Assembly: GCF_003334815.1 (NCBI RefSeq)
Contig: NZ_QOWO01000017.1
Origin: Escherichia coli
GTDB lineage: Bacteria > Pseudomonadota > Gammaproteobacteria > Enterobacterales > Enterobacteriaceae
Length of the DNA: 64,000 nt
Reading direction: 5' to 3' (one strand)
Both the position numbers and the translations under genes were made by a program. The notes under the pieces were generated by a model. It was not told where the DNA came from. It saw only the letters and a list, made by a program, of their open reading frames with translations, and did no database searches. Shown here one piece after another: positions 46,335-52,334 of this stretch (position 1 is the first letter of the stretch; each line of letters opens with the position of its first letter).

Positions 46335-47132
46335 TTATTCATTTTTCGCTACCAGCAAAGAGAGATCCTGCTTCACCAGCGCGCGACTGGCACTCTCCGG
46401 CAAACCGTCGTCTGTAATAATCTGATCAAACTCGCTTAATGGTAACGCCAGCCATGTCGCCACCTGACCATATTTCGTCGCATCACAGACCAAAACTCGC
46501 TGGCGGCTGGCACTGGCAATCGCCCGTTTCACCGTGACTTTATCTTCCGCTGGCGTAGAAATCCCCCGCACACTCCATGACGATGCAGAAATAAAAGCCT
46601 GATCAATCATCAGGCTGCGCAGCATGGTCGCAGCGGCTTCCCCGACACAGGAACGGTTTTCCCGACACACTGCACCGCCAGTGTGAATAATTGTGCAATT
46701 ACTGTTGTCGAGCAAGTAGTCCGCAATAACGAAATCGTTTGTGACCACAGTCAGTGACTCCATGTGAATCAGATGCTGTGCTATCGCTAACGTGGTCGTT
46801 CCCGCATCCAGATAGATACAACTTCCCGGCTGAACAAGACTTGCCGCCAGCTTGCCAATAGCCGCTTTTTGCGTCATTGCCAGCGCAGTTTTTACCTGAT
46901 GAGAAGGTTCATGCGCCACGCGTCCCGGAGACTGGACGCCTCCGGACACCAGCACAACGGCTCCCTGCTGCTCCAGTTTTTGTAAATCCCGACGAATGGT
47001 CATATGTGACACATTCATTCTGTCCGTTAGTTCAGCAATACTGACAATGCCTTTTTCAGCTACCATCTCAAGGATGATTTGGCGACGCTCTACGGGTATC
47101 AACTTTTGCTCCTTCCTTTGTCCTGCTGACAT
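46335..47132 (-). CDS. ygbI: DeoR-family transcriptional regulator YgbI
   Basis: N-terminal HTH (IVSIAELTDRMNVSHMTIRRDL) plus DeoR C-terminal domain; the true start may be about 10 codons downstream of the ORF-track start. Confidence 0.88.
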   Translation of the reverse strand: MSAGQRKEQKLIPVERRQIILEMVAEKGIVSIAELTDRMNVSHMTIRRDLQKLEQQGAVVLVSGGVQSPGRVAHEPSHQVKTALAMTQKAAIGKLAASLVQPGSCIYLDAGTTTLAIAQHLIHMESLTVVTNDFVIADYLLDNSNCTIIHTGGAVCRENRSCVGEAAATMLRSLMIDQAFISASSWSVRGISTPAEDKVTVKRAIASASRQRVLVCDATKYGQVATWLALPLSEFDQIITDDGLPESASRALVKQDLSLLVAKNE

Positions 47133-47297
47133 TCTACGCTATTTGCCTGCGAAACGTGCGCGGCGCAACTAACGCTTAGTTCACATAAAATAACACACAA
47201 TGTTAATTTATGTGAATCAGATCACCATATCGTTATCTTCCAGCGCTTATATTCACAATATCAAACAAAATATCACTTAAATTAACAAGGAGAGCAG

Positions 47298-48206
47298 ATG
47301 AAAACGGGATCTGAGTTTCATGTCGGTATCGTTGGCTTAGGGTCAATGGGAATGGGAGCAGCACTGTCATGTGTCCGCGCAGGTCTTTCTACCTGGGGCG
47401 CAGACCTGAACAGCAATGCCTGCGCTACGTTGAAAGAGGCAGGTGCTTGCGGGGTTTCTGATAACGCCGCGACGTTTGCCGAAAAACTGGACGCACTGCT
47501 GGTGCTGGTGGTCAATGCGGCCCAGGTTAAACAGGTGCTGTTTGGTGAAACAGGCGTTGCACAACATCTGAAACCCGGTACGGCAGTAATGGTTTCTTCC
47601 ACTATCGCTAGTGCTGATGCGCAAGAAATTGCTACCGCTCTGGCTGGATTCGATCTGGAAATGCTGGATGCGCCAGTTTCTGGTGGTGCAGTAAAAGCCG
47701 CTAACGGTGAAATGACTATCATGGCCTCCGGTAGCGATATTGCCTTTGAACGACTGGCACCCGTGCTGGAAGCCGTTGCCGGAAAAGTTTATCGCATAGG
47801 TGCAGAACCGGGACTAGGTTCGACCGTAAAAATTATTCACCAGTTGTTAGCGGGCGTACATATTGCTGCCGGAGCCGAAGCGATGGCACTTGCAGCCCGT
47901 GCGGGGATCCCGCTGGATGTGATGTATGACGTCGTGACCAATGCCGCCGGAAATTCCTGGATGTTCGAAAACCGGATGCGTCATGTGGTGGATGGCGATT
48001 ACACCCCGCATTCAGCCGTCGATATTTTTGTTAAGGATCTTGGTCTGGTTGCCGATACAGCCAAAGCCCTGCACTTCCCGCTGCCATTGGCCTCAACAGC
48101 ATTGAATATGTTCACCAGCGCCAGTAACGCGGGTTACGGGAAAGAAGACGATAGCGCAGTTATCAAGATTTTCTCTGGCATCACTCTACCGGGAGCGAAA
48201 TCATGA
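47298..48206 (+). CDS. ygbJ: NAD-dependent 3-hydroxyisobutyrate-dehydrogenase-like enzyme (L-threonate dehydrogenase type)
   Basis: 302 aa; Rossmann motif GIVGLGSMGMG; recognised as YgbJ. Confidence 0.9.
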   Translation: MKTGSEFHVGIVGLGSMGMGAALSCVRAGLSTWGADLNSNACATLKEAGACGVSDNAATFAEKLDALLVLVVNAAQVKQVLFGETGVAQHLKPGTAVMVSSTIASADAQEIATALAGFDLEMLDAPVSGGAVKAANGEMTIMASGSDIAFERLAPVLEAVAGKVYRIGAEPGLGSTVKIIHQLLAGVHIAAGAEAMALAARAGIPLDVMYDVVTNAAGNSWMFENRMRHVVDGDYTPHSAVDIFVKDLGLVADTAKALHFPLPLASTALNMFTSASNAGYGKEDDSAVIKIFSGITLPGAKS

Positions 48207-50104: not shown

Positions 50105-50881
50105 ATGCCTCGTTTTGCAGCTAATTTATCCATGATGTTCACCGAAGTGCCTTTTATTGAACGCTTCGCCGCAGCGCGAAAAGCCGGGTTCGATGCTGTG
50201 GAATTTCTGTTTCCCTATGACTACTCCACCCTGCAAATCCAAAAGCAACTGGAGCAAAACCATCTGACACTGGCGCTGTTCAATACCGCTCCCGGAGATA
50301 TTAATGCGGGGGAATGGGGATTATCCGCCCTTCCCGGACGTGAGCACGAAGCACACGCAGACATCGACCTGGCACTGGAATATGCATTGGCGCTCAATTG
50401 TGAACAAGTCCATGTGATGGCAGGCGTCGTGCCCGCTGGCGAAGATGCTGAACGGTACCGGGCAGTATTTATCGATAATCTCCGCTACGCTGCCGACCGC
50501 TTTGCGCCACACGGCAAGCGAATATTAGTTGAAGCACTCAGCCCCGGCGTTAAGCCTCATTATCTCTTCTCCAGCCAGTATCAGGCACTGGCTATTGTTG
50601 AAGAAGTTGCGCGAGATAACGTGTTTATTCAACTAGATACTTTTCATGCGCAAAAAGTAGATGGCAACCTGACGCATTTAATCCGCGACTACGCCGGGAA
50701 ATATGCGCACGTACAAATTGCCGGGCTACCTGATCGACATGAACCGGACGATGGAGAAATCAACTATCCGTGGCTGTTCCGCCTGTTCGATGAGGTGGGA
50801 TATCAGGGCTGGATCGGTTGTGAATATAAACCTCGTGGCCTCACCGAAGAAGGGCTTGGCTGGTTTGACGCCTGGCGCTAA
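50105..50881 (+). CDS. ygbM: Hydroxypyruvate-isomerase-like (TIM barrel) isomerase YgbM
   Basis: 258 aa translation recognised as YgbM. Confidence 0.88.
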
Positions 50882-50969
50882 TTCGTTAAATCCCTAATTA
50901 CAACGTACCCATACATCCCCCCATCTACGGATGGGGTAGGTTAACTATAACTTTCAGACAGGGTTTCCC

Positions 50970-52334
50970 ATGTCCACAATTACATTGTTATGCATTGCGT
51001 TAACTGGCGTAATCATGCTGTTGCTGCTGGTCATCAAGGCAAAGGTACAACCATTCGTTGCTCTGCTCCTCGTCAGCCTGTTAGTCGCACTTGCGGCGGG
51101 TATACCGGCGGGCGAAGTGGGTAAAGTGATGATCGCCGGGATGGGCGGTGTGCTTGGTTCCGTCACTATTATTATTGGTCTGGGCGCTATGCTGGGGCGT
51201 ATGATCGAACACTCTGGTGGTGCAGAGTCACTGGCTAATTATTTCAGTCGCAAGTTAGGTGACAAACGAACTATCGCTGCGCTGACTCTGGCAGCGTTCT
51301 TCCTCGGTATTCCCGTCTTCTTTGATGTCGGCTTTATTATTCTTGCGCCAATCATTTACGGTTTTGCCAAGGTTGCCAAAATATCGCCACTCAAATTTGG
51401 CCTGCCTGTCGCTGGGATCATGCTCACTGTTCACGTGGCGGTACCGCCGCATCCAGGCCCTGTCGCCGCAGCGGGGTTACTCCACGCAGACATCGGCTGG
51501 CTAACCATCATCGGTATTGCGATTTCTATTCCCGTAGGGGTTGTTGGCTACTTTGCAGCGAAAATAATCAATAAGCGCCAATATGCGATGTCAGTAGAAG
51601 TACTGGAACAGATGCAACTGGCTCCGGCCAGTGAGGAAGGCGCGACAAAATTAAGCGATAAAATAAATCCACCGGGCGTCGCGCTGGTCACCTCGCTAAT
51701 TGTTATTCCTATCGCGATTATCATGGCGGGTACGGTTTCCGCAACACTGATGCCGCCTTCGCATCCCCTGCTTGGTACGCTACAGCTGATCGGCTCACCA
51801 ATGGTAGCTCTAATGATTGCGCTGGTGCTGGCATTCTGGTTATTGGCTTTACGTCGCGGCTGGAGCTTACAACACACCAGCGACATTATGGGCTCAGCGC
51901 TTCCTACTGCGGCGGTAGTGATTTTGGTTACTGGTGCTGGAGGGGTATTTGGCAAAGTGCTGGTGGAATCGGGCGTCGGCAAAGCCCTTGCCAACATGCT
52001 ACAAATGATTGACCTGCCTCTGTTACCAGCCGCATTTATTATTTCACTGGCGCTGCGTGCATCGCAGGGGTCAGCAACCGTAGCAATACTGACAACCGGC
52101 GGGTTACTCTCAGAAGCGGTGATGGGATTGAATCCGATTCAGTGCGTATTGGTGACGCTGGCAGCCTGCTTTGGTGGGCTTGGTGCGTCACATATTAATG
52201 ACTCAGGGTTCTGGATTGTGACCAAATATCTGGGGTTATCGGTAGCAGACGGTCTGAAAACCTGGACAGTGTTAACGACCATTCTCGGTTTTACCGGATT
52301 CTTAATTACCTGGTGCGTATGGGCGGTAATTTGA
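50970..52334 (+). CDS. ygbN: GntP-family acid sugar permease YgbN
   Basis: 454 aa polytopic membrane protein recognised as YgbN. Confidence 0.9.
   Translation: MSTITLLCIALTGVIMLLLLVIKAKVQPFVALLLVSLLVALAAGIPAGEVGKVMIAGMGGVLGSVTIIIGLGAMLGRMIEHSGGAESLANYFSRKLGDKRTIAALTLAAFFLGIPVFFDVGFIILAPIIYGFAKVAKISPLKFGLPVAGIMLTVHVAVPPHPGPVAAAGLLHADIGWLTIIGIAISIPVGVVGYFAAKIINKRQYAMSVEVLEQMQLAPASEEGATKLSDKINPPGVALVTSLIVIPIAIIMAGTVSATLMPPSHPLLGTLQLIGSPMVALMIALVLAFWLLALRRGWSLQHTSDIMGSALPTAAVVILVTGAGGVFGKVLVESGVGKALANMLQMIDLPLLPAAFIISLALRASQGSATVAILTTGGLLSEAVMGLNPIQCVLVTLAACFGGLGASHINDSGFWIVTKYLGLSVADGLKTWTVLTTILGFTGFLITWCVWAVI

Follow-up and report, generated by a model that had tools for sequence, protein, structure and literature searches.

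Repressors of the GlpR/DeoR type bind phased arrays of repeats, and their effectors are phosphorylated intermediates (glycerol-3-phosphate for GlpR, deoxyribose-5-phosphate for DeoR). At class II CRP-dependent promoters, CRP is centred at -41.5 and there is no -35 element. An L-threonate operon with the gene order ltnD-otnK-otnC-otnI was reportedly characterised in other Proteobacteria by Zhang et al. in PNAS in 2016. Here we compare these systems with the ygbI gene and the divergent ygbJKLMN genes found in a 64,000-nt stretch of Escherichia coli DNA (contig NZ_QOWO01000017.1), which we call the window. The locus is the E. coli ygbI / ltnD-otnK-otnC-otnI-ygbN locus, already known and largely explained, and little in it is new: the locus itself, the enzyme families, the repressor and the positions at which YgbI and CRP bind are already in the literature or in RefSeq names. 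Taken together, the data make it probable that this is a repressor-controlled L-threonate catabolic operon read as a single transcript, with a putative operator made of pentamers, a predicted class II CRP promoter and a presumed phosphorylated inducer. As new elements we infer the pentamer operator, the class II CRP promoter of ygbJ, and a deletion in the otnK gene of strain K-12 that led to the split of the operon in databases.

Gene content and predicted pathway

The locus comprises the following genes.

46335..47102, minus strand: ygbI, DeoR-family repressor of 255 aa, TTG start (from profile and orthologue lengths)
47298..48206, plus strand: ygbJ = ltnD (open reading frame list)
48203..49465, plus strand: ygbK = otnK, 420 aa, intact (open reading frame list)
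49462..50100, plus strand: ygbL = otnC (open reading frame list)
50105..50881, plus strand: ygbM = otnI (open reading frame list)
50970..52334, plus strand: ygbN, GntP-family permease (open reading frame list)

All six genes are intact in the window. The six open reading frames, their co-directional packing and the divergent DeoR regulator lie exactly where the initial annotation of this DNA had placed them, and the overlaps it described at the ygbJ/K and ygbK/L junctions measure 4 nt each. The gap between ygbL and ygbM is 4 nt and that between ygbM and ygbN is 88 nt. With mutS and pphB on its left flank and rpoS and nlpD on its right flank, the locus lies in the E. coli mutS-rpoS region. A single operon is suggested by the 4-nt overlaps, by the same gene order next to a divergent ygbI in related bacteria, and by published RNA-seq in which transcripts span ygbK-ygbL even in K-12. 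Generic promoter and terminator scans of the locus returned no more sites than in shuffled sequences; the terminator scan found no terminator-like site 3' of ygbN, and the hairpin of the ygbM-ygbN spacer is no better than those of shuffles (z = -0.74).

Many E. coli genomes carry the 6.25-kb locus at 100% identity, and it is found at a coverage of at least 80% in 4577 of the 5426 complete genomes of the species. Genomes lacking the locus retain only the pphB and rpoS ends, with a segment encoding MarR and hydroxyarylic-acid decarboxylase between them, in agreement with the published mosaic nature of the mutS-rpoS region.

We identified the proteins by NCBIfam equivalog cut-offs, Pfam scans and matches to solved structures. 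All six products score above equivalog cut-offs and contain the expected Pfam domains. YgbJ reaches 473.7 with the L-threonate dehydrogenase (LtnD) model NF043037 (cut-off 350), and it stays under the cut-offs of the GarR/tartronate semialdehyde reductase models (197 vs 397; 182 vs 341) and of the HIBADH model. It carries an NAD_binding_2 domain together with an NAD_binding_11 domain, its closest solved structure is 3g0o, and it is predicted to be LtnD, an L-threonate 2-dehydrogenase of the beta-hydroxyacid dehydrogenase family.

YgbK scores 598 with the 3-oxo-tetronate kinase model NF043035 (cut-off 350), covering profile positions 1-417 of 418, and falls under the cut-off for D-threonate kinase (131.7 vs 450). 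Its SBD_N (residues 4-228) and NBD_C (residues 253-411, model positions 1-168 of 168) domains correspond to the former DUF1537. Solved orthologues are 3dqq from Salmonella, 1yzy from Haemophilus (HI1011) and 5dmh from a third species; the C-terminal segment PGVPW...LALKSGNFG aligns with all three, so that YgbK has the architecture of the full-length kinase. It is assigned, by orthology only, as the putative ATP-dependent 3-oxo-tetronate kinase OtnK.

YgbL scores 334.8 with NF043034 (cut-off 250), while all FucA, AraD and MtnB models remain below their cut-offs. It contains an Aldolase_II domain (PF00596, 4.1e-50), and PDB entry 6vop is YgbL. Its residues E79, H98, H100 and H165 align with the catalytic E73 and the metal ligands H92, H94 and H155 of FucA. 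YgbM passes NF043033 (396.4 vs 325) and fails the hydroxypyruvate isomerase model TIGR03234 (298.1 vs 353.45). With an AP_endonuc_2 domain and its own structure in the PDB (1k77), it is predicted to be the 2-oxo-tetronate isomerase OtnI, a xylose-isomerase-like TIM barrel. The product of ygbM (50105-50881) is named 'HPr family phosphocarrier protein' in RefSeq and in NCBIfam NF007441, a name that looks like an erroneous annotation copied into thousands of genomes. YgbN exceeds NF007332 (827 vs 524) and TIGR00791 (344.7 vs 292.75) and lies under the cut-offs of the GntT and GntP (gluconate) and DsdX (D-serine) equivalogs. Its GntP_permease domain (PF02447, 3e-154) covers residues 5-453, and it is presumed to be an L-threonate:H+ importer.

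These assignments predict uptake followed by a four-step enzymatic route. YgbN would bring in L-threonate, which LtnD would oxidise to 2-oxo-tetronate; OtnI would isomerise this to 3-oxo-tetronate, OtnK would phosphorylate the latter at C4 to 3-oxo-tetronate 4-phosphate, and OtnC would decarboxylate the phosphorylated compound to dihydroxyacetone phosphate. Orthology thus suggests an L-threonate pathway in this E. coli. For the bacterial orthologues, gene deletions abolish growth on L-threonate, as far as Zhang 2016 is summarised in PMC12540250 and PMC12994016. A module for four-carbon acid sugars, with a DUF1537 kinase and an aldolase-like decarboxylase, had been proposed in the initial annotation, and it finds support in the equivalogs, the domains, the solved orthologues and the synteny in eight other Enterobacterales.

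Related loci were collected by protein search and contig look-ups; a contig scan with YgbI alone gave four loci. In Entomohabitans, Salmonella, Serratia, Pectobacterium, Citrobacter, Pantoea and two further enterics, a YgbI orthologue (60-87% identity) is encoded divergently from these four enzyme genes. The kinase of these relatives is always 419-422 aa long and its gene overlaps its neighbours. Two operon types occur among the enterics, with and without a gene for D-erythronate dehydrogenase. In the operons of Salmonella and of locus L007, otnI and the permease gene are separated by one more gene, whose product is the D-erythronate dehydrogenase DenD (NF043036, 451 and 437 vs 325). YgbN shares only 33% identity with the permease of this Salmonella type and 78% with the permease of locus L008, whose operon is of the E. 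coli type. We found no open reading frame and no remnant of denD in the 88-nt spacer between ygbM and ygbN, and a tblastn search of the 64-kb window gave no DenD homologue (best E-value 1.4). The absence of denD from the locus and the window leads to L-threonate alone as the predicted E. coli substrate, and D-erythronate, for which the Salmonella-type operon has DenD, was rejected. E. coli is accordingly expected, on the strength of gene content, to use L-threonate but not D-erythronate; of the 'threonate/erythronate' substrates originally named for the locus, the first stands and the second does not.

The YgbI repressor and the ygbI-ygbJ spacer

YgbI scores 481.9 with its equivalog model NF040890 (cut-off 400), and its HTH_DeoR (residues 6-59, 6.8e-16) and DeoRC (residues 76-231, 3.9e-51) domains give it the DeoR architecture. 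As called from an ATG, the ygbI open reading frame spans 46335..47132 on the minus strand and encodes 265 aa; the rest of the locus is on the plus strand. The true start is the TTG at 47102, giving 255 aa, because NF040890 aligns only from residue 11 of the 265-aa frame, because the orthologues are 253-256 aa long and RefSeq annotates 255 aa, because the TTG is preceded, at 6 nt, by a Shine-Dalgarno sequence, AAGGAAGGAG, and the ATG by none, and because the mapped transcription start falls inside the extended frame (PMC2760140). On these grounds the ATG start was rejected. The ygbI promoter had been mapped at +9 of the old ATG, with CGTAGAAT as its -10, and its authors judged the old annotation wrong (PMC2760140). 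Via the TTG start, the spacer initially given as 165 bp becomes 195 bp (47103..47297). It was rightly described as AT-rich: its GC content is 0.385, and 0.305 in 47170-47297, vs 0.52 for the locus.

The spacer holds the following elements.

47124..47136, minus strand: mapped ygbI promoter, -10 TAGAAT at 47136..47131, start near 47124, 21 nt upstream of the TTG
47150..47180, no strand: equivalent of the YgbI ChIP-exo peak, mapped from U00096.2 2859304-2859334
47180..47216, no strand: distal candidate YgbI operator, palindrome TTCACATAAAATAACA-N5-TGTTAATTTATGTGAA, two facing TCACA-N5-TAACA boxes
47211..47226, no strand: CRP site TGTGAATCAGATCACC, one mismatch to TGTGA-N6-TCACA
47248..47253, plus strand: predicted ygbJ -10 TATATT, positions 2 (A90) and 6 (T94) invariant in a 10-species alignment
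47253..47287, plus strand: proximal candidate YgbI operator, pentamers TCACA, AAACA, TCACT and TAACA in a 10-nt register, starting at the -10 and stopping just short of the Shine-Dalgarno sequence

Binding and repression by YgbI are documented in K-12. ChIP-exo detected one YgbI site genome-wide, in the ygbI-ygbJ spacer (2859304-2859334, signal/noise 12.5), and RNA-seq showed ygbJKLMN to go up upon deletion of ygbI (PMC8464067). The ChIP-exo coordinates are those of U00096.2 and would fall inside mutS in the current numbering; we placed the interval on the window via the ygbJ ATG and the alignment to K-12. The only position at which the YgbI protein and the spacer depart from their K-12 counterparts is 47230 in the spacer (T in the window vs C in MG1655), which falls in none of the conserved boxes and has the CRP site on one side and the predicted -10 on the other. 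The operator and inducer of YgbI had initially been called non-obvious from sequence. The published work covers YgbI binding in the spacer, the repressor role, the ygbI start and the CRP site; the checks then suggested, YgbI binding and ygbI phenotypes, had largely been carried out by others in K-12 (ChIP-exo, deletion, growth on tartrate).

Conservation of the spacer was assessed in the 10-species alignment and motif exclusivity in 13 fetched loci. Three islands are conserved in the alignment: GTTAWTTWTTGTGA, the -10-like TATATT, and four units of 10 nt. The motif ATT(C/T)TACGC of the ygbI promoter region is conserved across the extracted orthologous spacers, and this promoter sits to the left of all operator, CRP and ygbJ-promoter elements. 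The distal palindrome is imperfect, with 16-nt arms that are 94% complementary and a 5-nt spacer, and further direct copies of its box occur nearer ygbJ. Both arms match the pattern exactly, and the right one is invariant or nearly so in the 10 species. With at most one mismatch allowed, four of the seven matches to TCACA-N5-TAACA in the window lie within 107 nt of the spacer (47181, 47201 on the minus strand, 47253 and 47273). In the 13 loci, all 14 exact matches are in ygbI-ygbJ spacers, with none elsewhere.

The register of the proximal array is held in all 10 species, and the array ends 10-14 nt before the start codon. Its units read T(C/A)ACA / (A/G/T)AACA / T(C/A)AC(T/G) / T(A/C)ACA in the alignment. 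The pentamers are exactly 10, 20 and 30 nt apart, and the distance between the distal and the proximal elements ranges from 72 to 102 nt in steps of 10 nt. The E. coli spacer contains 7 pentamer pairs at lags of 10, 20 or 30 nt, vs a mean of 0.25 in shuffles, and none of 5000 shuffles reaches 7.

The CRP site has been bound in vitro. A preprint on genome-wide in vitro footprinting reports taTGTGAatcagaTCACCata, which is located between ygbI and ygbJ, as a new site for CRP and infers a Kd of 8.4 nM for it (PMC12871828); the sequence in the window is identical to the footprinted one. The TGTGA of the site also belongs to the right arm of the distal palindrome. In the 10 species its position relative to the ygbJ start stays within -87 to -91, with a gap of 26-27 nt to the -10, and the alignment contains no conserved -35 for the ygbJ promoter. 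Since the predicted -10 at 47248-47253 puts the ygbJ transcription start near 47260, we infer that CRP would be centred at -41.5; the resulting class II geometry fits the absence of a conserved -35.

These features suggest a model of regulation. YgbI would recognise T(C/A)ACA pentamers at a spacing of 10 nt. When bound to the distal palindrome, it would exclude CRP via the common TGTGA, and on the proximal array it would cover the region from the -10 to about +28 and so block RNA polymerase. The two arrays would lie on one face of the helix, and an oligomeric DeoR-type repressor could loop the DNA between them. Once derepressed, ygbJ would be read from the class II CRP-dependent promoter. The inducer is most likely 3-oxo-tetronate 4-phosphate, if YgbI behaves like other DeoR-family repressors.

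A frameshift in otnK of K-12

Over the 11.6 kb from mutS to nlpD, the window and MG1655 (NC_000913.3) are 99.8% identical, with 23 differences. One of them lies in otnK.

49350..49354, plus strand: C5 run in otnK; MG1655 has C4 (L001 8482-8485), a -1 frameshift

In MG1655 the otnK frame shifts after Pro384 and yields 388 aa, leaving a 91-nt 'gap' before ygbL. The MG1655 YgbK lacks 36 residues, among them the segment PGVPW...LALKSGNFG that 3dqq, 1yzy and 5dmh conserve; the end of the nucleotide-binding domain is lost with them. The exact 61-mer with C5 is present in 3382 of the 5426 complete genomes and the exact 60-mer with C4 in 371 of them. Among the matches listed for the C4 allele, all 40 of 40 are by name K-12-lineage laboratory strains or their derivatives. 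We attribute the division into ygbJK, ygbLM and ygbN in databases to this lesion of a laboratory strain. We found no explicit mention of the K-12 otnK frameshift in the literature searched, though a record of it may exist in other papers.

All the experiments on regulation and growth that are cited here were done with MG1655. It is a tentative possibility that natural E. coli with an intact otnK has a working CRP-dependent system induced by L-threonate, in which 3-oxo-tetronate 4-phosphate is the true inducer of the pentamer-bound YgbI, and that the K-12 deletion removes the pathway and the inducer together. If true, this would explain the cryptic look of the locus in K-12, where it is switched on only by loss of function of ygbI, and the published operon structure and tartrate phenotype of K-12 would describe a damaged system.

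Alternative explanations

Several points weigh against an L-threonate operon controlled from the pentamer operator. The interval called by ChIP-exo (47150-47180) borders on the predicted palindrome without overlapping it. The palindrome lacks a conserved left arm in Serratia, Pectobacterium, Citrobacter and Pantoea, and the invariant TGTGA could be conserved through CRP alone. The proposed inducer comes from analogy only, and the phenotypes reported for E. coli are those of ygbI mutants growing on L- or meso-tartrate, not on threonate. Lastly, another group predicted promoters within the palindrome, among them TTCACA-16-GTTAAT. For ygbJ, a promoter in that position appears less likely to us, since it would leave the CRP site immediately downstream of the start.

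The operator of YgbI might instead be the non-repetitive sequence of 47150-47180, with the repeats to its right serving only as promoter and CRP elements. The published peak maps to this interval and covers the -35 region of the promoter mapped for ygbI, and TGTGA, TCAC and TATATT all have promoter or CRP explanations. However, the sequence under the peak shows no conservation outside Escherichia, although YgbI is 60-87% identical across the compared species. The promoter and CRP explanations would also leave unaccounted for the four phased pentamers downstream of the -10 and the exclusivity of TCACA-N5-TAACA to ygbI-ygbJ spacers, and where an operator has several sites a ChIP-exo call can reflect a single border. 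We regard this location as unlikely and favour the pentamer arrays.

Work on K-12 has led to the proposal that the physiological role of the operon is the catabolism of L- or meso-tartrate, with YgbI as the repressor of a tartrate pathway. Deletion of ygbI lets MG1655 grow on 20 mM L-tartrate (PMC8464067), two independent lines evolved on meso-tartrate both gained ygbI mutations with over-expression of ygbI through ygbN, and YgbJ resembles tartronate semialdehyde reductases too. Yet the wild type does not grow on tartrate, which indicates that tartrate does not induce the operon and that loss of the repressor is needed, and the authors of the evolution study themselves call the activity likely promiscuous. 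The enzymes, moreover, exceed the cut-offs of the threonate pathway and remain under those for tartronate semialdehyde reductase, hydroxypyruvate isomerase and fuculose-phosphate aldolase, and the K-12 strain used has a truncated kinase, so its phenotype cannot report on the complete pathway. A role in tartrate catabolism seems improbable to us, and L-threonate remains the favoured substrate.

That the locus serves both L-threonate and D-erythronate, as initially worded, we consider very improbable: the Salmonella-type operon does pair the same four genes with a D-erythronate dehydrogenase, and OtnI, OtnK and OtnC are described as acting on 'tetronates' from either acid, but denD is missing from the ygbM-ygbN spacer and from the window, and the E. 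coli permease has only 33% identity with the Salmonella-type permease.

Observations on related and neighbouring sequences

Two Salmonella-type loci (L006 1726-4169 and L007 1730-4194) encode a GntP permease of 498 aa whose gene overlaps the D-erythronate dehydrogenase gene by 4 nt. In Salmonella, the orientation of the cluster relative to rpoS is opposite to that in E. coli. Yersinia pseudotuberculosis has an orphan ygbI orthologue (L010 8001-8771, 62% identity) without adjacent ltnD-otnKCI; just upstream of it (L010 7863-7960) are two TCACA-N5-TAACA boxes with one mismatch each. A contig of 9292 nt filed as 'MAG: Oscillospiraceae bacterium' (L002, RKCM01000024.1) encodes a YgbI 100% identical to that of E. 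coli, and the operator boxes of E. coli are on it too. The contig almost certainly comes from E. coli and was mis-binned into a metagenome-assembled genome of Firmicutes. In Citrobacter portucalensis (L012 2699-3846 and 16011-16756), the block ygbI-ltnD-otnK-otnC-otnI ends at a transposase gene, not at a permease gene, and a phage-type integrase gene is nearby, which suggests a mobilised, truncated copy. Fragments of ygbI-ygbM are mentioned in papers on blaSHV plasmids.

An exact copy of a FliA (sigma-28) promoter-like motif, TAAGGATCTTGGTCTGGTTGCCGATACA, lies inside ygbJ at 48032-48059 on the plus strand. In K-12, FliA ChIP-seq is reported to have found a weak site at this motif, upstream of ygbK.

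In the adjacent rpoS gene, codon 243 is changed from GAG to TAG (52692-52694, minus strand), which predicts a sigma-S of 242 aa without region 4. The exact 61-mer with this TAG occurs in none of the 5426 complete E. coli genomes. The change looks like a private mutation and was probably selected in the laboratory or under stress. Codon 33 of rpoS (53324) is GAG (Glu) in the window vs CAG in MG1655.

Significance and comparison with known systems

The motif of YgbI was underivable from one ChIP-exo site, and the elements described here provide a base-level model of its operator and of the promoter it would control. L-threonate is a breakdown product of ascorbate (vitamin C) and is likely available in the gut. 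Because of the kinase frameshift, regulon databases and K-12 phenotypes need careful reading where this locus is concerned.

The E. coli locus shares with the L-threonate operon ltnD-otnK-otnC-otnI the four enzyme families, the gene order, the divergent DeoR regulator and the GntP permease. From the Salmonella-type operon it differs in having no denD and in its permease, which is another GntP paralogue. The same locus is recorded for E. coli K-12 MG1655 in RefSeq and RegulonDB as ygbI-ygbJK-ygbLM-ygbN; the window instead has a 420-aa ygbK that overlaps ygbL.

With GlpR/DeoR-type repressors, YgbI has in common the domain architecture, the multiple phased half-sites and the divergent autoregulated gene, and the effector domain of DeoR (7l6l) is the nearest solved structure to its own. 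It differs from them in its putative T(C/A)ACA pentamer and in an arrangement specific to the ygbI-ygbJ spacer. The predicted ygbJ promoter resembles class II CRP-dependent catabolic promoters in two respects: a good CRP site and a conserved -10 keep a fixed distance from each other, and no -35 is conserved. It differs from them in that a half-site for CRP is also part of a putative repressor box.

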